Shown in pieces: positions 56,937 to 64,000 of a DNA stretch of 64,000 nt; the first letter of the stretch is position 1, and each line of letters begins with the position of its first letter. The position numbers and the translations under genes were made by a program. The stretch is from Bacteroidia bacterium (lineage in GTDB: Bacteria > Bacteroidota > Bacteroidia > UBA4408). The notes under the pieces are model-generated. The model was not told the origin of the DNA. It saw only the letters and a list, made by a program, of their open reading frames with translations, and ran no database searches. The stretch is taken from NCBI GenBank assembly GCA_044370375.1, contig JBILVQ010000001.1, forward strand, positions 173-64,172, given 5' to 3'.

Positions 56937-57674
56937 ATGCATATTCCTGCTAATTTTGCAAAAGAAATGGTGAACAAAAATTATTATGGTTTATTGGTAA
57001 TGGCAACTCGTTTGGAGGCCGGACCCTTGCTTGATCATTTTGTTGCCGATTCCACCAATTTCAGATTGTATCATGGTAAAAATCATTGGGAACATTGGAT
57101 AATGCTCATTACCGGTGTTGGTATGGTCAACACAGCACTTTTTACCGGCATCACCTTGTCTTCTTTTTCTTTCAAAATGGCTGTAAATGCAGGGGTTGCC
57201 GGATCATTTAATCAACAGCTATCCTTAGGAACCGTGCTCCGTATTGATGAGGACAGCATTCCCGAATTAGGTGCCGAAGATCATGATGCCTTCATGAATC
57301 TGAACGAGTTGGGAATTTATTTTCCTGAGCAGTTACCTCTGGATCCTGAGAACAAGTTGTCTGCCTTTCATGACGACTCGATTTTTCCGTCCTTATGGGC
57401 CCAATTACCCAAAGGGAAGGCGGTTACTGTTAACAAGGCCCACGGCAATGCTCAATCTATTGAGGCCTTTGAAAGCGAATTTGTTGCTGAATTGGAAAGC
57501 ATGGAGGGAGCGGGTTTCATGATGGCTTGTAAAGCATTGCATCTTCCCTTTCTCCAAATACGATCTATTTCCAACTATGTTGAACCCAGAAACAAGGCAA
57601 ACTGGAAAATGGCTTTGGCCCTTCGTAATTTACATGAGACCCTCAACAATGGTCTTACATCAAACAAAAAATGA
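56937..57674 (+). CDS. mqnB: Futalosine hydrolase-like nucleosidase (PNP/MTAN family), putative MqnB
   Basis: An MTA/SAH-nucleosidase-like C-terminal segment is present (ESMEGAGFMMACKALHLPFLQIRSISNYV), along with an N-terminal glycine-rich segment (ITGVGMVNTA). A 4-nt overlap with the downstream mqnD-like gene suggests coupling. Confidence 0.55.
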   Translation: MHIPANFAKEMVNKNYYGLLVMATRLEAGPLLDHFVADSTNFRLYHGKNHWEHWIMLITGVGMVNTALFTGITLSSFSFKMAVNAGVAGSFNQQLSLGTVLRIDEDSIPELGAEDHDAFMNLNELGIYFPEQLPLDPENKLSAFHDDSIFPSLWAQLPKGKAVTVNKAHGNAQSIEAFESEFVAELESMEGAGFMMACKALHLPFLQIRSISNYVEPRNKANWKMALALRNLHETLNNGLTSNKK

Positions 57675-58507
57675 AACTAGTTCTAGCCTATTCACCATGT
57701 CCTAACGACACCTTTATTTTCGGAGCCCTTATTAATCAATTAATAGATACCGAGGGCATTGAATTTGAAGTGGTATTGGATGACGTAGAATCTTTGAACA
57801 GAGCGGCCCTCAAGCACAAGTATCCGATTACTAAATTGAGTTTTGGCATGTATGCAAACGTTATCGGTAATTATCATTTGCTTTCTGCCGGGGCAGCTCT
57901 CGGAAGGGCATGCGGACCCTTGCTTATCAGCAGGCAACCCATCGCGGAAATAAAATCCAGTGACGCATACCGGATTGCTATTCCCGGAAAGAACACAACG
58001 GCCAATTTTTTATTAAACATCTTTTTTCCGGCCCTGACCTATAAAAAGGAAATGCTATTCAGTGAAATTCAGCCTGCATTGATCAGAAATGAGATTGATC
58101 TGGGCCTGATCATTCATGAAAGTCGTTTTACCTATGAAAAAAGCGGACTGTATAAAGTGGCCGATTTAGGCGAATTATGGGAGAATGCTACCGGTTTTCC
58201 GATTCCTTTGGGTGGTATTTTTATCGACCAGCAATTACCCTTGGCAATAAGCAAAAAAGTAAATCGTTTAATCAGAAAAAGCATTGAGTTTGCAAGAAAC
58301 AACCCTGATGCCATCATGCCTTATGTTCGTGAACATGCCAACGAAATGGATGAATGGGTAATGAAACAGCACATTGATTTGTATGTCAACAACTATTCTT
58401 TAAATTTGGGCGAAGATGGTAAGGAAGCGGTGCGGTATTTGTTGACAAGAGCAGGTAAAGACAAATCTTTATTAATGAGTGAGTTGAATTGGTTGGTACA
58501 GGATTAA
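57671..58507 (+). CDS. mqnD: MqnA/MqnD-family menaquinone (futalosine pathway) biosynthesis protein, probably 1,4-dihydroxy-6-naphthoate synthase MqnD
   Basis: The N-terminus LVLAYSPCPNDTFIFGAL resembles the MqnD signature. The length of 278 aa fits the SBP-like fold family. Confidence 0.55.
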   Translation: MKLVLAYSPCPNDTFIFGALINQLIDTEGIEFEVVLDDVESLNRAALKHKYPITKLSFGMYANVIGNYHLLSAGAALGRACGPLLISRQPIAEIKSSDAYRIAIPGKNTTANFLLNIFFPALTYKKEMLFSEIQPALIRNEIDLGLIIHESRFTYEKSGLYKVADLGELWENATGFPIPLGGIFIDQQLPLAISKKVNRLIRKSIEFARNNPDAIMPYVREHANEMDEWVMKQHIDLYVNNYSLNLGEDGKEAVRYLLTRAGKDKSLLMSELNWLVQD

Positions 58508-58519
58508 AATTGAAATGAT

Positions 58520-59485
58520 ATGATCATAATTACCGGAGCAGCAGGTTTTATAGGTAGTGCATTGCTGGCTTTTCTAAACGAAAAAAATTTCAATGATATT
58601 GTTTTGGTGGACCATTTTACCAATGAACAAAAATTGAAAAATCTGGCTGGCAAGAAGTATTCTTTTATGGTTAACCGTGAAGAGTTTCATGATTGGCTCG
58701 ACATTCATCACTCCTTGGTACAATTTGTTTTTCATTTGGGGGCGAGGACCGATACGGCAGAGTTTGATTTGGATTTGCTGAATCGATTGAATTTGAATTT
58801 CAGCAAGAAAGTTTTTGAACAGTGTACGGAATATGGATTGCCTTTGGTGTATGCATCCTCTGCTGCTACCTATGGTGATGGAGCCTTGGGATTTGATGAT
58901 GACGAAAGCATCTGTCCGCAATTGCATCCCCTAAACCCTTACGGTTTTTCCAAGAATGAGATGGACAAGTGGGTCCTTCGTCAGCCTGAGCGGCCTTACT
59001 TTTGGGCAGGTTTAAAATTCTTTAACGTATACGGCCCCAATGAGTATCATAAAAAAAGAATGGCCTCTGTTATTTTTCATTCATATCATCAGATAAAGAA
59101 TAATGGTGAGGTAAAACTGTTTCGTTCTCACAGACCCGAGTATGCCGATGGCGAGCAATTGAGAGATTTTGTTTATGTAAAAGATGTTTGCAAGGTTTGT
59201 TATTTCTTTATGAAGAACAGGAGCCGTTCCGGTATTTATAATTTGGGAACAGGTGAGGCAAGAAGTTTTCTTGACTTAACCAATTCCGTTTTTTTGTCGA
59301 TGAATTTAAAACCTGCTATTTCCTTTATCGATATTCCGGAGGACATTCGAAACAAGTATCAGTATTATACACAAGCAAAAATGGAAAAATTGCGCAGGGC
59401 CGGATTTACAGATGATTTTACCAGCCTTGAGGCAGGTATCAGTGATTATGTAAAGAATTATCTCCTGGAAGAGAAGTATTACTAA
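58520..59485 (+). CDS. hldD: ADP-L-glycero-D-manno-heptose 6-epimerase
   Basis: The N-terminus MIIITGAAGFIGSALLAFLNEKNFNDIVLVDHF is present, with the SDR catalytic YxxxK (ASSAATYGDG...) and an overall RfaD-like layout. Confidence 0.75.
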   Translation: MIIITGAAGFIGSALLAFLNEKNFNDIVLVDHFTNEQKLKNLAGKKYSFMVNREEFHDWLDIHHSLVQFVFHLGARTDTAEFDLDLLNRLNLNFSKKVFEQCTEYGLPLVYASSAATYGDGALGFDDDESICPQLHPLNPYGFSKNEMDKWVLRQPERPYFWAGLKFFNVYGPNEYHKKRMASVIFHSYHQIKNNGEVKLFRSHRPEYADGEQLRDFVYVKDVCKVCYFFMKNRSRSGIYNLGTGEARSFLDLTNSVFLSMNLKPAISFIDIPEDIRNKYQYYTQAKMEKLRRAGFTDDFTSLEAGISDYVKNYLLEEKYY

Positions 59486-59925
59486 TGCTCATTGATATCA
59501 TTCGTTTTTTGCTTGGCTTAAAACCGGTACGTTATTTTTTTTCTGCCGGAATTGCCACCATCGTAGATGTTGTTGTATATTATTTGGTTTACAATCATGT
59601 GCTTCATCAAGAGGAGCTTTCAATTGTTAATTCAATGATTTTTAAGGCGCCAACAGTTGCACTAACATGCTCCTATTCTTGCGGCCTGGTCACCAATTTC
59701 ACCATTACCAAATATTTTGTTTTTCATGAGTCTGAATTATCAGGAAGAATTCAATTGTTTCGTTTTATCTTGGTGGCCTTTGTAGTGTTGATAGCCAATT
59801 ATTATTTCATGTATTTTTTAATCAATATTTTGGGCTGGTTCCCAACTTTATCGAGAGCAGTTTCTGCCATAAGCATTGGCGTATTTAGTTTTGTTGCCCA
59901 TCGTTTTTTTTCTTTTAAGATATAG
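59485..59925 (+). CDS. GtrA-family membrane protein (polysaccharide synthesis/translocation accessory)
   Basis: The length is 146 aa with four hydrophobic helices. The GtrA-like N-terminus is RYFFSAGIATIVDVVVYYLV. It overlaps the hldD stop by 1 nt (TAATG). Confidence 0.6.
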   Translation: MLIDIIRFLLGLKPVRYFFSAGIATIVDVVVYYLVYNHVLHQEELSIVNSMIFKAPTVALTCSYSCGLVTNFTITKYFVFHESELSGRIQLFRFILVAFVVLIANYYFMYFLINILGWFPTLSRAVSAISIGVFSFVAHRFFSFKI

Positions 59926-60041
59926 AAGAAAACAATAAATTTATTGAAACGTCTTTTGTTTGATTAAAATATTTAATTGGGCAGGATAGAACCTACCGTT
60001 TTCTGGTTAAGTTTTAGTCCTCTCAAGAGGTCAAATTGATA

Positions 60042-60216
60042 AAAGGGCATAAAAGCAGAAATTAAATTCTTGTAACCATTGAATTCATCTGAATTATCTA
60101 CCTGTAATGCGTAATTGGTTCCATCAACCCTCAAATTAAGCTAGGTTAATCCCTGTGAATCTGTTATATCAAAGATATTAAATTAAAACCATTTTCTAGA
60201 ACATAATTTTTGGCAA
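60042..60216 (-). pseudogene. Remnant (~175 bp) of the 5' region of the duplicated CTD-cargo gene. It is a third partial copy of the tandem unit.
   Basis: The stretch 60042-60216 is near-identical by eye (about 90% or more) to 61672-61848, the 5' end of the 60831..61766 gene plus the intergenic spacer. No intact ORF is present. Confidence 0.5.
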
Positions 60217-60822
60217 TTACTCTGTGCCAATTTTTTCTTTTTGAAAGTATTTTTTACCAAAGCAATAGCCGATGGATACTGCCGGGGCAAGCCAGTTTTG
60301 AAATTCGTTAACTCTACGATTAAACGATGGGTCTAATCCATTATAGTAATCTATTATTTTCTTCCCATAAATCAAAGAAACACCCAAAATCAACCTCTCT
60401 TGAAGAATACGTCTTGCGTAGTTTAGACGAAAGTAAACTACAATTGATTTATTCGTTTTGTCCTGAGAGAATGATATTCGGCCCTTGTCATAACCTAATC
60501 CCAACCCTAAAAGGATGCTTCGGCCACTACTATGCTTATAGCCTAAATTTATTGCGGTAGAGATATTATAGGCATGAACTAGTTCATGGTTCCCTTGCAA
60601 ATTATAGCGGTAACCAGCAATCGCATCGGCTTGATAAAACAAACTAGTCTGTTTAATTTTGGAGTTATAGAAATACTGCAAATTGTATGCGTTACTTGTA
60701 CCCCAGAATTCAAAACAAAGGGCATGAAAAAATTGTTTATTTTTTGAAGTACTTGATTGTCCAATTGCAGTTCCATGCAACCCAATTAAAATTGAAATTT
60801 GCAAAACGATTATATTTTTCAT
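60217..60822 (-). CDS. Small outer-membrane beta-barrel protein, PagL-like (putative acyloxyacyl hydrolase / lipid A deacylase family). Copy A.
   Basis: A signal peptide is present. The amphipathic beta-strand pattern is about 200 aa long. The H-x-S motif (YKHSSGRS) with an acidic residue about 15 aa downstream resembles the PagL His-Ser-Glu arrangement. It is a paralogue of 61849..62466 (the shared C-terminus is SIGYCFGKKYFQKEKIGTE). Confidence 0.4.
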   Translation of the reverse strand: MKNIIVLQISILIGLHGTAIGQSSTSKNKQFFHALCFEFWGTSNAYNLQYFYNSKIKQTSLFYQADAIAGYRYNLQGNHELVHAYNISTAINLGYKHSSGRSILLGLGLGYDKGRISFSQDKTNKSIVVYFRLNYARRILQERLILGVSLIYGKKIIDYYNGLDPSFNRRVNEFQNWLAPAVSIGYCFGKKYFQKEKIGTE

Positions 60823-60830
60823 TTTTGAAA

Positions 60831-61766
60831 TTAATTTTTAATTAACTTGGTACTATGGATATTTTCATCAAAATTAATTTTAAGAACATAGATTCCCTTT
60901 GAAATATTTGAAAGGTTGAGTATTGTTTTATTTGAGTAAGAAATACCTGTTTCCAAAATTTGACCCATTGTATTTTGTAATGAATAAGAGTAAGAATGGT
61001 TTACATTAGTTGTTTCTATCGTTAGGGTTTCATTAAACGGATTTGGTGAGATTATTACACGGTGTGATGAATAATTTTCTTGCATGTCAATATTTGGAAC
61101 AATGGTAATTGGATTGATTGAATCAGCTAAATCTGGAAGGTTGATGTTTACCGAGGCATACCTTCCTCCCGTATAACAGGCTGAACTTACAGTCTGAATG
61201 CTTACCTCCGAGCCCGCTTGCAAATAAACCTCCCCTTTAATGGAAACAAAATTGCCGGCCGTAATGCTTGCAGTTACTCCGTCTTGTATAATAAAGTTAG
61301 AATTTTGATAAACAGGAAGGGCTATGCTTTTTTGATTGGTGTTTGCATTGAACAGATAATCACTGTCATAAAGAAACTCTGTGGGAATATCTTCTAAAGT
61401 ATTAATGGTTAAATTGTGTTTGGCATGGAAGTCTTGGTTATAGGTAAGGTTCCTGTTGAAAAGAATTAAATCCACACATTCTTTGTCCCATTGGGCCCTT
61501 ACTACCTGAGAAAAACCATAGCCGCCAATAGCAGAGGAGCTAAGAAAATCTAATGCAGACCTGTTGTTGTTAGGATTGTTTGGATTTCCACCCTCCCATA
61601 CGTTCTTCATGGTTTGCAAAATCAAATCGTAAGTAGTTGTTGATTTTACCGTGCCGTTATCATCAAATTGGTAAAAGGGCATAAAGGCAGAAATTAAATT
61701 CTTGTAAGCATTGAATTCATCTGAATCATCTACCTTTAAGGCGTAATTGGTTCCATCAACCCTCAA
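60831..61766 (-). CDS. T9SS type-A CTD cargo protein, a 5'-truncated tandem duplicate of the 62475..64000 gene (possible pseudogene or TTG-initiated fragment)
   Basis: Residues 1-~210 are near-identical to residues ~190-400 of the 496-aa paralogue. The C-terminal ~100 aa diverge but keep a Por-secretion sorting-domain ending (KGIYVLKINFDENIHSTKLIKN). The ORF starts at a TTG, and the homologous frame upstream hits a stop within 10 codons. There is no signal peptide. Confidence 0.6.
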   Translation of the reverse strand: MRVDGTNYALKVDDSDEFNAYKNLISAFMPFYQFDDNGTVKSTTTYDLILQTMKNVWEGGNPNNPNNNRSALDFLSSSAIGGYGFSQVVRAQWDKECVDLILFNRNLTYNQDFHAKHNLTINTLEDIPTEFLYDSDYLFNANTNQKSIALPVYQNSNFIIQDGVTASITAGNFVSIKGEVYLQAGSEVSIQTVSSACYTGGRYASVNINLPDLADSINPITIVPNIDMQENYSSHRVIISPNPFNETLTIETTNVNHSYSYSLQNTMGQILETGISYSNKTILNLSNISKGIYVLKINFDENIHSTKLIKN

Positions 61767-61848
61767 ATTAAGGTAGGTTAATCCCTCTGAATCTGTTATA
61801 TCAAAGATATTAAATTAAAACCATTTTCTGGAATATAATCTTTGGCCA

Positions 61849-62466
61849 TTACTCTGTGCCAATTTTTTCTTTTTGAAAATATTTTTTACCAAAGCAATAG
61901 CCGATGGATACTCCCGGAAAAAGCCAATTATTTTTTTCTAAAGTCCTTCGATTGAACGTTGGGTTCAATCCATTCTGATAGTTCATAATTTTGATGCCAT
62001 AAACCAATGAAATTCCCAGAATCAATCTTTCATTACATAATCTTCTAGAATAATTAAGTCGAATGTAAGTCAATACTGTTTTGTTTGTTTTATCATCTGA
62101 ACTTAATTTTCCTTGTACGACTCTTCCTTCCTCCTGACCTAAACCAAAACCTAAAAGCAAGCTTCTTCCTGAGTTGTGCAAATAACCTAAATTTCCGGCT
62201 ACTGAAAAATTATACACATGAATTACCCCAGTTTTTCCTGCTGATTCTGACCTATATCCTGCAATTGCATCGGTTTGAAAAAACAAATTCATTTTATTTA
62301 TTTTTTTTAAGAAGAGATAATGAATATTAAATGCTGTGCTCGTACCCCATAACTCTATACATAGCCCATGCTGTTGGTTTAGGTTTTGGTATTTTATTTC
62401 TTTGCCAATCAATTCAAAATTGATGGCCACAACAAATAAGAACAATGTAAAAAGTAATTTTTTCAT
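61849..62466 (-). CDS. Small outer-membrane beta-barrel protein, PagL-like (putative acyloxyacyl hydrolase family). Copy B.
   Basis: A signal peptide is present and the length is 205 aa. The H-x-S motif is YLHNSGRS, with EE 15-16 aa downstream. It is a paralogue of 60217..60822, with DNA identity high at the 3' end and decaying into the gene. Confidence 0.4.
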   Translation of the reverse strand: MKKLLFTLFLFVVAINFELIGKEIKYQNLNQQHGLCIELWGTSTAFNIHYLFLKKINKMNLFFQTDAIAGYRSESAGKTGVIHVYNFSVAGNLGYLHNSGRSLLLGFGLGQEEGRVVQGKLSSDDKTNKTVLTYIRLNYSRRLCNERLILGISLVYGIKIMNYQNGLNPTFNRRTLEKNNWLFPGVSIGYCFGKKYFQKEKIGTE

Positions 62467-62474
62467 TTTTGAAA

Positions 62475-64000
62475 CTAATTTTTAATTATTTTTTGTTTAA
62501 TTATTCCTTCCACAGAAATAATTGAAATAAAATAAACACCATTTTTTAAATGATTTAAGTTTACTTCTGTTTTTCCTGGAAATATTGTGTTAATCTGCAA
62601 GATTTGCCCCATCGAATTTTGTAGAATAAAATTGCTAGGCCGCTCCGTGAATTCAATTTCAATAGTAATGGAGGAAGAAAAGGGATTCGGGTAAGCATTA
62701 ATTTGAGGTTTTATTGGGTCTAGTTGTTTCATTGAATTCTTCTTTACTGATTTTTGAGTTGAAGAATCGATTGGGGCAATAAGATTATTGTTTGATTGTG
62801 AGAATCTTCCACCTGAATAACAATTAGATGTAACAGAACTTATACTTACTTCTGATCCAGAGTTAAAATAAACTTCACCCTTAAGAGAAACAGAATTCCC
62901 TGCAGTGATGTTAGCCGTTACACCACTTGGTATGGTAAAGTTGGAGTTTTGATACACAGGAAGCGCAGTGCTGTTTTGATTGGTGTTAGGATTGAACAGA
63001 TAATCACTGTCATAAAGAAACTCTGTGGGAATATCTTCTAAAGTATTAATGGTTAAATTGTGTTTGGCATGGAAGTCTTGGTTATAGGTAAGGTTCCTGT
63101 TGAAAAGAACTAAATCCACACATTCTTTGTCCCATTGTGCCCTTACAACCTGAGAAAAACCATAGCCGCCAATAGCTGAGGAGCTAAGAAAATCTAATGC
63201 AGACCTGTTGTTGTTAGGATTGTTTGGATTTCCTCCTTCCCATACATTTTTCATGGTTTGCAAAATCAAATCGTAAGTAGTTGTTGATTTTACCGTGCCG
63301 TTATCATCAAATTGGTAAAAGGGCATAAAGGCAGAAATTAAATTCTTGTAAGCATTGGGAACCTGACCATCATCTTCTGCCAAGAAAGTATTGGTTCCAT
63401 CCACCCTTAGGTTAAATTTGGTTAATCCCTCTGAATCCGTTTCATCATAAATATTATTCAAAAACATTCGTCTGAATTTTTCCATTTCTGCATGGTTTAG
63501 AAAAAGGTCATTATTGTTGTTAATGGTGAGTCCCTGCTTATAAGCCTCATAAAAAAAATACATAGAGTTGACTGCATGAGATACGTCCTCGGATGCTTCA
63601 ATTGCCTTTGGGTAATCAAACGAGTTTTCGTCAGGGCAAGGTGCGCATTTGGATAATTCAAGGGACCACCCATTGGTATAATACCAAAAGGAATTATTTG
63701 GGCCGTTTAAAAAAATCGGGGCATCATATTGAATTTCATTTGGACACGGTGAATGGCATTTATCTGTAAAAGTAAGATGGGATTTTAATAATTCTGCTAT
63801 ACGTTTGGCTTTTGTAAGGTGATTGGAATTTCCTGTTAGACCCGTGTAGAGGAAAGGTAATGCGCAAAGAACATTTTGATTGAGTTGAGCAGCTTGTTGA
63901 GGGAAATCTTGATTAAACAGAAAGCCCAATTCAGTGGTGAATAAAATGTCAGCATGTTTGTTCATGGTTATCTCAATCTCCTGGAGCAGAAAATTTGCAA
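62475..64000 (-). CDS. T9SS type-A CTD cargo protein. It probably continues beyond the window end (5' partial).
   Basis: The Por-secretion C-terminal sorting domain ends NGVYFISIISVEGIIKQKIIKN. The ORF track gives 62475..63965 with ATG at 63965. However, the frame stays open to nt 64000 and the called N-terminus (MNKHADILFTTELG) has no signal peptide. A more upstream start outside the window is likely. Confidence 0.65.
   Translation of the reverse strand, partial: ANFLLQEIEITMNKHADILFTTELGFLFNQDFPQQAAQLNQNVLCALPFLYTGLTGNSNHLTKAKRIAELLKSHLTFTDKCHSPCPNEIQYDAPIFLNGPNNSFWYYTNGWSLELSKCAPCPDENSFDYPKAIEASEDVSHAVNSMYFFYEAYKQGLTINNNNDLFLNHAEMEKFRRMFLNNIYDETDSEGLTKFNLRVDGTNTFLAEDDGQVPNAYKNLISAFMPFYQFDDNGTVKSTTTYDLILQTMKNVWEGGNPNNPNNNRSALDFLSSSAIGGYGFSQVVRAQWDKECVDLVLFNRNLTYNQDFHAKHNLTINTLEDIPTEFLYDSDYLFNPNTNQNSTALPVYQNSNFTIPSGVTANITAGNSVSLKGEVYFNSGSEVSISSVTSNCYSGGRFSQSNNNLIAPIDSSTQKSVKKNSMKQLDPIKPQINAYPNPFSSSITIEIEFTERPSNFILQNSMGQILQINTIFPGKTEVNLNHLKNGVYFISIISVEGIIKQKIIKN

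Follow-up and report, generated by a model that had tools for sequence, protein, structure and literature searches.

A tandem repeat of a 5′-truncated secreted-protein gene and an outer-membrane barrel gene forms the downstream end of a strain-variable cluster of 7.1 kb (7090 nt) in an uncultured freshwater Bacteroidota bacterium. The truncated copies have remained open under purifying selection, are joined through an old junction shared between lineages and contain a core that evolves in concert with that of the full-length gene; module types are found in both the orphan and the full-length position, and are present or absent between relatives. We interpret the copies as orphan modules resembling those of CDI/Rhs systems, which would swap the tail of the cargo together with a dedicated barrel, a functional reading that we consider evenly balanced between right and wrong.

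Architecture of the repeat locus

In the cluster, the orphan modules come after a gene for an SprB-repeat protein, the T9SS cargo gene (670 aa) and a small outer-membrane barrel gene. The right border is a conserved GtrA-like gene on the plus strand (59485–59925). Within the window (the whole stretch of 64,000 nucleotides analysed), a minus-strand unit of 1632–1644 nt is present 2.1 times, comprising the 3′ third of the cargo gene with its type A C-terminal domain (CTD) and then a barrel gene of ~200 aa. The open reading frames are cargo1 (62475–63965 and beyond), barrel1 (61849–62466), cargo2 (60831–61766), barrel2 (60217–60822) and a remnant of 53 aa (59973–60134). Self-BLAST aligned 61198–61825 with 62842–63468 (87% over 630 nt, E = 0), 60031–60844 with 61663–62488 (74% over 840 nt, E = 4e-136) and 60031–60193 with 63307–63468 (77%), and together with the periods of 1632 and 1644 nt this confirms the tandem arrangement described in the initial annotation. 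Six long metagenome contigs from different samples and assemblers are colinear with the window, without gaps and at 99.95–99.98% identity over all 4075 nt, and the order of the four genes is the same in all six.

Cargo1 (62475–64000, minus strand) had been described as the gene of a secreted protein with a type A CTD. This holds, but the gene is not complete in the window: the frame is open up to base 64000 and the gene runs ~487 nt past the window end, so that the window contains the 3′ 1526 nt of a gene for a 670-aa T9SS substrate. The full protein (contigs L001–L006; taken from L001:7980–9992, N-terminus MKAILLAFVLLCSGLTKGQ) begins with a Sec signal peptide, followed by a passenger that is mostly helical, a beta region resembling a coathanger and the type A CTD (62475–62693, minus strand; PF18962 at residues 425–494 and TIGR04183 at residues 425–496 of the window ORF). 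The proposed type A CTD is borne by both cargo copies, with 33.3 and 39.1 bits against PF18962 (cutoff 27) and 37.7 and 38.7 bits against TIGR04183 (cutoff 23). The CTD is variable, with 37% amino acid identity between the two copies.

Mosaic identity and concerted evolution of the core

Identity between the copies is mosaic, as had been noticed initially. In 60-nt windows, 56–60 of 60 positions are identical across 63344–62985 versus 61700–61341, only 21–40 across the linker, the CTD and the greater part of the barrel, and again 58 at the barrel 3′ end (61904–61845 versus 60272–60213). The conserved core of 360 nt (copy 1, 62985–63344; copy 2, 61341–61700; both minus strand) is 97.2% identical at a dS of 0.16 and is the best-conserved part of the entire cargo family, carrying its invariant residues (FMPFYQFDD...AQWDKEC...NRNLTY), whereas dS is saturated or undefined in the post-core, linker and CTD. 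Between the window units, linker, CTD and barrel are 37–55% identical at the amino acid level and saturated. Core copies inside one genome are 97.2% (window) and 96.5% (L008) identical, compared with 90.3–90.4% between genomes, and many synonymous differences are lineage-specific and common to the copies. Because identity within genomes exceeds that between genomes, gene conversion is indicated, in line with the unequal crossover or gene conversion suggested initially, and we hold the repeat architecture and gene conversion with high confidence.

Two junctions connect barrel to cargo sequence. J1 (61767–61848, minus strand) contains the barrel1 stop, a short spacer and degenerate cargo sequence, homology to cargo1 beginning at ~61825; a TAnnTTTG match at 61802–61809 belongs to a motif that is no commoner in the window than expected by chance. 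J2 with the cargo remnant (60031–60216, minus strand) is a third copy, made up of the junction and ~160 nt from the start of the cargo fragment, with two in-frame stops. The remnant of the cargo 5′ junction that the initial annotation had placed at 60042–60216 is present, but homology extends over 60031–60216 and stops at 60031. The high identity attributed to the intergenic spacer also stands (J1 and J2 are ~94% alike), but it is not plain spacer, being partly built from internal cargo sequence. The variable block is flanked by two homology arms for a block swap, the left being 63344–62985 versus 61700–61341 and the right 61962–61663 versus 60330–60031 (89% over 300 nt), and J2 with the remnant could serve as the right-hand arm of unit 2.

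Persistence of truncated cargo copies

Cargo2 (60831–61766, minus strand) is an orphan copy of 311 codons starting at TTG that matches cargo1 residues ~360–670 and retains an intact type A CTD. No signal peptide was found in cargo2 and an in-frame TAA (61817–61815) lies 17 codons 5′ of the TTG, in agreement with its initial description as 5′-truncated. The same breakpoint and TTG are seen in J1 and J2 of the window, in L015 and in L008/L009, the barrels of which are only ~50% identical; the junction is common to lineages with saturated barrel dS. Orphan cargo ORFs are intact, with dN/dS of 0.20–0.31 including orphan-versus-orphan comparisons (cargo2 versus the L015 orphan, 0.23 overall and 0.26 for the CTD).

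The initial annotation had called for a check of other strains for copy-number variation, and relatives differ in their arrays. At the L015 locus, mgtE is followed by a barrel2-like gene (93% nt), a different 311-aa orphan and another barrel; this site has no full-length cargo, and its orphans are thus maintained with no expression copy at the locus. L022 has 57 nt where the 7090-nt cluster sits elsewhere and thus lacks it entirely, mgtE coming directly after the GtrA-like gene. The L015 orphan unit and the full-length-type unit of L021 are mutual closest relatives, with 69% identity in the CTD and 87% in the barrel (over the 76 aa available, the 5′ end of L021 being cut by the contig start), whereas the two window units share only 37% in both. 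As this pair is not near-identical, the change of position must be old. Within the sampled population no exchange was seen, all six long contigs having the same arrangement, and distant cargo homologues lack this barrel. Both observations, like the L015 array without a full-length cargo, speak against module exchange as the explanation.

These data have to be weighed against a plain tandem duplication in decay, by which unequal crossover would have copied a 3′ cargo–barrel segment, leaving cargo2 and the remnant as pseudogene debris. Function would then be confined to cargo1 and the barrel paralogues, and occasional core conversion would be a by-product without a selected role. The missing signal peptide and the stop just upstream of cargo2, the short third copy with its stops, the 113-aa fragment in which the L008 array ends, a barrel-tail remnant found at another place, the dispensability of the whole cluster (L022) and the structural identity of the six contigs in this population would all fit such decay. 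It does not account for ORFs of 311 codons that have stayed open at dN/dS of 0.2–0.3 despite a junction shared by lineages with saturated barrel dS, for orphan CTDs that both score above the curated HMM cutoffs, or for one module type being found in orphan and in full-length position, and we judge it rather unlikely.

The barrel family

Barrel1 (61849–62466, minus strand) encodes 205 aa with a signal peptide and a predicted 8-stranded outer-membrane beta-barrel (AF2 pLDDT 72); barrel2 (60217–60822, minus strand) encodes 201 aa with 54–55% identity to barrel1. Both end in the same C-terminal tail, SIGYCFGKKYFQKEKIGTE, which contains Cys191, is predicted to be periplasmic and is invariant, cysteine included, in 11 of 11 family members and in the divergent P0023. 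The family is a tiny orphan with a generic 8-stranded fold, confined to a small lineage (11 clusters among 5.8 billion). None of the 11 members matched PF09411 or any other Pfam family even at E ≤ 10; neither a PDB sequence match nor a sequence relation to PorP/SprF or another family in Pfam and NCBIfam was detectable.

The barrels might themselves be the object of diversification, as independent outer-membrane proteins (e.g. phage or predator targets) on a flexible genomic island, their divergent paralogues being maintained by frequency-dependent selection, in which case the cargo fragments would be mere repeats driving array expansion and contraction and CTD divergence would reflect hitch-hiking. 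The island differs between strains and is low in GC (34.2% versus 40.2%), the barrels are all intact, each having a start codon and signal peptide of its own, their length differences map to the predicted extracellular loops L3/L4, and in L014 and L015 barrels occur without a preceding full-length cargo. However, the predicted external loops are very short, which weakens the surface-diversification argument, overall barrel dN/dS is 0.14–0.30 without a signal of positive selection, and purifying selection on orphan cargo ORFs and CTDs would be left unexplained; we regard this as quite improbable.

The initial annotation had raised the possibility of PagL-like lipid A deacylases that couple cargo anchoring on A-LPS with remodelling of the LPS nearby. 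An H-x-S motif (H97/S99), the only such motif, is present in 8 of the 11 barrels, LPS-related genes lie nearby, and the small 8-stranded outer-membrane barrel fold is that of PagL (PF09411; PDB 2ERV). Besides lacking HMM and PDB sequence matches, however, the 11 members have no invariant His and no conserved His-Ser-Glu triad, and in structure comparison OprF-N, NspA, OmpA and OmpX score as well as PagL or better. The motif is altered in three members (H97 to Asp in P0007; S99 to Thr in P0008 and P0011) and falls in the predicted periplasmic turn T2. The active site of PagL lies on the outer-leaflet side of the membrane. The rfaD-like and GtrA-like neighbours are conserved flanking genes that have no relation to the insertion, being kept also in L022, and a link to LPS remodelling is not supported. 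The PagL reading is largely refuted and appears very improbable. The initial interpretation is hence partly supported, the observation itself being confirmed. Finally, the short contigs L008, L016 and L017 break exactly at the repeated core, as would fit a repeat collapsed or expanded in assembly. However, six independent contigs span the array gaplessly, and units differing by >45% over most of their length could not collapse into one another; the chance of an artefact is virtually nil.

A proposed model of module exchange

The diversifying surface-protein cassette considered in the initial annotation fits the shared junction, the purifying selection on truncated ORFs and the occurrence of module types in either position. 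An orphan module consists of the final ~930 nt of the cargo gene with an alternative linker and CTD, followed by an alternative barrel gene. Lacking start codon context and signal peptide, the orphan cargo is joined in every case via one single ancient junction. The variable linker–CTD–barrel block is flanked by two conserved stretches, the 360-nt core on one side and the barrel 3′ tail with the junction on the other. In our preferred reading, homologous recombination between these stretches, by gene conversion or unequal crossover, keeps the core homogenised and could also shift the whole CTD–barrel block between orphan and expressed positions, or expand, shrink and delete the array. The selected function of the orphans would be module exchange, which has in our view an even chance of explaining the persistence of the truncated copies. 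The logic of CDI/Rhs modules would thereby be applied to the sorting and anchoring end of the cargo and its partner barrel. The barrel might act as an outer-membrane carrier or anchor specific to its cargo, as SprF/PorP do for type B cargo, and the invariant periplasmic tail with its Cys may be the docking site for a periplasmic partner that is itself invariant, for example GldK/PorK. That the barrel is the cognate partner of the CTD is a tentative and doubtful proposal, and the CTD–barrel correlation across five units is confounded by physical linkage.

Comparison with known systems

In Neisseria pilE/pilS, promoterless 5′-truncated copies likewise have conserved segments in common with a single expressed gene, and these segments show concerted evolution. 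The copies here are few and each cassette adds a complete second gene, and we found no evidence at this locus for high-frequency switching or recombination-stimulating elements.

Genes for type B cargo have dedicated PorP/SprF carriers linked to them (PMC12618676, PMC9143113), and as in those systems an outer-membrane beta-barrel gene adjoins a T9SS substrate gene, a conserved cysteine lies in the periplasmic C-tail, and barrel body and cargo C-terminus are variable (PMC9143113, PMC12618676, PMC12635249), a likeness that suggests pairwise specificity. The barrel described here differs in having no detectable sequence similarity, in being much smaller (~180 aa mature, 8 predicted strands), in a single Cys ending the last strand instead of a CxC in the tail, and in a partner binding that is putative. 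By HMM its cargo carries a type A CTD, a type for which the general carrier PorV and not a dedicated barrel is reported (PMC12618676), an observation against a dedicated partner. Cysteines in the periplasmic C-tails of SprF and of the 8-stranded PorG bond Cys343 of GldK (PMC12635249). PorG resembles our barrel in predicted strand number, similar size and a cysteine conserved at or within the periplasmic C-tail, which in Porphyromonas gingivalis PorG is likewise single (PMC12635249). In F. johnsoniae and P. gingivalis, however, PorG belongs to the essential core of the T9SS (PMC12635249), whereas the barrel here has no sequence match to it and is duplicated in a dispensable, strain-variable cluster of a tiny lineage.

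The orphan cdiA-CT/cdiI and rhs-CT/rhsI modules of CDI/Rhs systems (Poole et al, 2011; PMC3150448) differ in that their variable end is a toxin, here replaced by a linker and T9SS type A sorting domain, and their small gene encodes a cytoplasmic immunity protein, here a signal-peptide-bearing outer-membrane barrel; moreover, the secretion system here is the T9SS, and identity decays over ~200 nt instead of being sharply demarcated by a VENN or PxxxxDPxGL-like motif. In both, 5′-truncated fragments come after a full-length gene for a secreted protein, each with its own small partner gene; the fragments keep a conserved stretch and an alternative variable C-terminus, other strains have orphan module types fused to full-length genes, and the arrays sit in variable loci, where homologous recombination drives their evolution.

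A tandem array of cargo and barrel genes

The minus strand at the 3′ end of the window holds 2.1 copies of a direct repeat (period 1632-1644 nt), identified both by repeat finding and by self-BLAST. The first unit comprises a T9SS cargo gene (cargo1, 62475 to beyond 64000), whose frame is open up to base 64000, and a gene encoding an outer-membrane barrel (barrel1, 61849-62466). An 82-nt junction (J1) separates barrel1 from the second cargo copy (cargo2, 60831-61766), which starts with TTG and is followed by its own outer-membrane barrel gene (barrel2, 60217-60822) and by a second junction (J2) with a cargo remnant of ~160 nt (60031-60216, same strand). A GtrA-like gene (59485-59925) is convergent to the array. 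In both units the barrel gene starts 8 nt past the cargo stop; the gap between the two genes is 5-8 nt on four other contigs (L008, L009, L010 and L021) and 140 nt on another (L012). Terminator-like sites were not found after the barrels, and Rfam gave no match in the window. The G+C content is 34.2% in the array (59926-64000), 40.2% in the whole window and 40.5% in the adjacent 10 kb.

According to six metagenome contigs with the same locus, the full cargo gene encodes 670 aa starting MKAILLAFVLLCSGLTKGQ, an N-terminus that by eye looks like an ordinary Sec signal peptide. Cargo2 covers about the final 311 residues, has an in-frame TAA 17 codons upstream of its TTG and is without a hydrophobic N-terminus, and the remnant copy carries a further TAG. 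The C-terminal sorting domains (CTDs) of cargo1 and cargo2 score 37.7 and 38.7 bits, respectively, with TIGR04183 (curated cutoff 23 bits) and 33.3 and 39.1 bits with PF18962 (cutoff 27 bits); neither protein matched the type B (CHU_C) model, and the CTDs fit type A models only. The variable part of the cargo consists of a linker of ~55 aa and the type A CTD of 75 aa. The AF2 model of the passenger (pLDDT 53) is too poor for a fold search, and its sequence gives only weak hints of (alpha/alpha)6 enzymes (GH76, E=0.007; GH127, E=0.07).

A full-length gene followed by 5′-truncated fragments, each with its own small gene 3′, as found here, is an architecture of the CDI/Rhs type. The locus appears best described as an array of orphan modules, each joining a T9SS cargo tail to a putatively dedicated small barrel.

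Mosaic identity and gene conversion

When the units are aligned globally and scored in 60-nt windows, their identity proves to be sharply partitioned. Over the core, a 360-nt cargo segment (63344-62985 versus 61700-61341), 56-60 of 60 positions are identical; identity drops to 45-47/60 in the 120 nt directly after it and to 21-40/60 in the linker, the CTD and most of the barrel, before recovering to 58/60 at the 3′ end of the barrel gene and into the junction. By segment-wise Nei-Gojobori estimation, dS is 0.16 for the core and saturated or undefined for the post-core segment, the linker and the CTD. The core is the most conserved part of the cargo family, in homologues that are only 27-35% identical, and its low dS cannot be explained by protein constraint alone.

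A second lineage (L008) likewise has two copies of the core. Within a genome the copies are 97.2% (window) and 96.5% (L008) identical, whereas each of the four comparisons between the genomes yields 90.3-90.4%; both core copies of a genome have many lineage-specific synonymous differences in common. Such a pattern is the mark of concerted evolution through gene conversion that is limited to the core. The evolutionary side of the initial annotation (unequal crossover or gene conversion, and a cassette) is supported.

Age, upkeep and rearrangement between relatives

The passage from barrel stop through spacer to cargo fragment, including the TTG, is shared by J1, J2, L015 and L008/L009, while the barrels there have diverged to ~50% identity and their dS is saturated. 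The truncated cargo ORFs are nevertheless intact, with dN/dS values of 0.20-0.31 whether compared among themselves or with full-length copies; for cargo2 versus the L015 orphan the overall value is 0.23, with 0.13 for the core and 0.26 for the CTD.

The make-up of the array differs between relatives. At the array site of L015, mgtE is followed by a barrel2-type gene (93% nt identity), a different orphan of 311 aa and another barrel, and neither the SprB-like gene nor a full-length cargo gene is present; on L014 a barrel is preceded by unrelated genes. The L015 orphan unit and the L021 unit are mutual closest relatives (CTD 69%, barrel 87% over the 76 aa available), while the two window units share 37% identity in the CTD and likewise in the barrel. 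The L021 cargo reaches well upstream of the junction but is truncated at its 5′ end, where the contig begins; positions 1-40 of this contig translate to ...LSLHDALPI*, which we take to be a sequencing-adaptor residue, so that the "550-aa" protein P0012 is an N-terminally cut cargo of the full-length type. The relationship between the L015 orphan and its full-length-type counterpart is old rather than recent, and module types change position between orphan and full-length-type contexts. The array is old, maintained and rearranged.

On contig L022, which is syntenic to the left and right at ~78% nt identity, the 7090-nt cluster of SprB-like, cargo and barrel genes seen in the window lineage is replaced by 57 nt, and therefore the whole cluster is a presence/absence polymorphism. 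On this 359-kb contig, GtrA is directly followed by mgtE (L022:11406-11541). At L018:905-994, an unrelated locus, 30 codons of a barrel C-tail (INEFKNWFAPAVSIVYCFGKKYFQKEKIVAYP) survive as a remnant, flanked by an anmK-like gene and an ORF of 1204 aa. The best GTDB genome for the rfaD-like protein encoded beside the array is only 64-66% identical, and the host lineage is an uncultured freshwater one of the Bacteroidota.

In a rival reading, diversification centres on the barrels, as independent surface targets, and the cargo fragments serve solely as recombination scaffolds. Such a reading agrees with the island behaviour of the cluster, but leaves the constraint on the orphan CTDs unexplained. 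Neutral decay of a duplication fits poorly: although it accounts for the remnants, for a cargo2 without signal peptide and for a cluster that can be dispensed with, the orphan ORFs are intact and constrained and stand behind an ancient shared junction. An assembly artefact is essentially excluded, because six long contigs from different samples are colinear with the window, gapless and 99.95-99.98% identical over all 4075 nt; shorter contigs end exactly at the repeated core. The tandem duplication of cargo and barrel reported in the initial annotation is confirmed, with minor corrections.

No support for a PagL-like barrel

Relatives of the barrel are rare: 5.8 billion proteins yielded 11 clusters, 1.84 billion proteins yielded only 4 representatives in a sensitive HMM search, and JGI metagenome contigs yielded only three loci, two of them from one population; none was found in 185,579 GTDB species genomes. 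The 11 family members have no Pfam match even at E<=10, barrel1 and barrel2 no NCBIfam match at E<=1, and the family profile no match among PDB sequences at E<=10. In the AF2 model (pLDDT 72) a signal peptide precedes eight long strands, the predicted external loops are very short, and the protein ends in a C-terminal tail of 14 residues. The model has generic small outer-membrane barrels as its structural neighbours, with OmpX, NspA and OmpA first in Foldseek. The C-terminus stands out: SIGYCFGKKYFQKEKIGTE hardly varies across the family, the divergent P0023 included, and holds the only invariant cysteine of the family: Cys191 is single, lies at the end of the last strand inside the invariant SIGYCFGKKYFQK tail and is not part of a CxC motif.

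The barrels had been proposed to be PagL-like and possibly to link cargo anchoring to LPS remodelling, a reading that is now essentially excluded. The model does share the 8-stranded outer-membrane beta-barrel fold of PagL, which ranks 12th among the Foldseek neighbours. Neither barrel1 nor barrel2 has any Pfam match at E<=1, however, none of the 11 members matches PF09411 at E<=10, and the profile search of PDB sequences did not retrieve PagL (2ERV) at E<=10. No conserved His-Ser-Glu triad was found on the outer-leaflet side of the barrel. The family alignment has no invariant His, and the sole H-x-S motif (H97-x-S99) is altered in three members (P0007, P0008 and P0011) and sits in a predicted periplasmic turn between strands 4 and 5, so the assignment is not supported. 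The link to LPS is likewise unsupported; the rfaD-like and GtrA-like genes belong to the conserved flank and occur even where there is no cluster. The flank (56937-59925) encodes proteins of the PNP_UDP_1 and VitK2_biosynth families (futalosine-pathway-like) as well as ADP-L-glycero-D-manno-heptose 6-epimerase-like and GtrA-like proteins; the LPS idea may have been drawn from these genes, which are unrelated to the insertion.

Neighbouring genes and junction motif

Upstream, just past the window end, cargo1 is adjoined by a SprB-repeat gene (PF13573, 646-735 aa; L001:6038-7978), whose product ends in ~130-190 aa with the pattern WPDYVF...HLPxIPS...KIEELTLY and a coiled coil. This C-terminal part recurs in genes upstream of distant cargo homologues (L011, 487 aa, 44% identity; L019, 713 aa, 35%), which suggests a conserved gene neighbourhood. 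Two distant cargo relatives (L011:7206-7991 and L020:428-1168) have a different, signal-peptide-bearing, barrel-like ORF of ~250 aa directly upstream; homology between these ORFs and the window barrel is not detectable, and they may be analogous partners.

Both junctions contain TATCTTTG (TAnnTTTG) on the minus strand ~40 nt upstream of the TTG (61802-61809 and 60170-60177). The element is kept in all junction copies (J1, J2, L015 and L008) and absent from the matching cargo1 sequence. We take TAnnTTTG to be the Bacteroidota -7 promoter motif, but it occurs in the window at chance frequency (71 found versus 77 expected) and is therefore not evidence for a promoter; the junction copies are only a lead towards a possible internal promoter that would drive the orphan and the next barrel.

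A proposed model of module exchange

The variable block, made up of linker, CTD and barrel body, lies between two conserved arms. The cargo core forms the left arm; the right one consists of the barrel tail, the junction and ~160 nt from the start of the following cargo fragment, and is 89% identical over 300 nt between the units (61962-61663 versus 60330-60031). We propose that the terminal remnant supplies unit 2 with a right-hand arm like that of unit 1. Recombination from arm to arm could then convert the expressed copy to another type of CTD and barrel, a single crossover in the core could delete one unit, and unequal exchange could add units.

We also put forward, as an improbable extension of module exchange, that the locus represents a new class of T9SS accessory: a small, Cys-tailed, 8-stranded outer-membrane barrel dedicated to one type-A-like cargo, with the specificity half (linker, CTD and barrel body) stocked as exchangeable orphan modules, recombination re-addressing or re-anchoring an unchanged passenger and the invariant tail contacting a constant protein of the periplasm, for example GldK/PorK. 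If this were true, a type-A-like cargo with a co-varying barrel would extend the idea of the dedicated carrier, spare modules of CTD and barrel would show that the orphan-module strategy of polymorphic toxins serves surface-protein targeting too, and the invariant Cys tail would offer a connection, open to direct testing, with the GldK/PorK track, to which outer-membrane proteins were recently described to be attached by disulfides. If the more modest reading is right, the locus is simply a well-documented example of how a flexible island in an uncultured lake bacterium undergoes concerted evolution.

Comparison with known systems

To our knowledge, dedicated, gene-linked barrels are known for type B cargo only. 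Like PorP/SprF genes, which adjoin T9SS cargo genes, the window barrel genes lie next to theirs, 8 nt apart, and the linked, co-diverging CTD and barrel recall the PorP/SprF-like carriers of type B cargo (PMC9143113, PMC12618676). The partner cargo of PorP/SprF has a type B CTD, however, whereas the window CTDs are of type A only, for which the general carrier PorV is the one reported (PMC12618676); the barrels, with neither a Pfam nor an NCBIfam family match, were not placed in the PorP/SprF family. SprF has a Cys-X-Cys in its periplasmic C-tail where the window barrel has the single Cys191. PorG is an 8-stranded outer-membrane protein with a Cys in its periplasmic C-tail (PMC12635249), two features that the barrel shares according to its predicted fold. 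PorG and SprF bond to GldK Cys343 via their C-tail cysteines, and PorG is essential in F. johnsoniae and P. gingivalis (PMC12635249). In contrast to PorG, a conserved core component of the T9SS, the barrel has two copies per locus, is absent from the syntenic L022 and is not core. The functional steps, a putative dedicated carrier and GldK-type docking, are inferred by analogy, and the barrel has no sequence kinship with the PorP/SprF and PorG families.

Orphan cdiA-CT/cdiI and rhs-CT/rhsI modules have the same layout as the window array, with other cargo (PMC3150448). In CDI/Rhs systems, orphan types are found fused to full-length genes in other strains, which is matched here by the L015 orphan and L021. 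The variable C-terminus of those systems is a toxin and the small gene encodes an immunity protein, whereas here they are a linker with CTD and a signal-peptide-bearing outer-membrane barrel. A toxin/immunity reading was rejected because the variable region is too small for a toxin domain and matches the CTD. A full-text search of one literature collection turned up no T9SS cargo described with an arrangement of this kind. We regard the orphan array as a variant on known kinds, with an architecture that is solid and unusual for the T9SS and a function that we infer.
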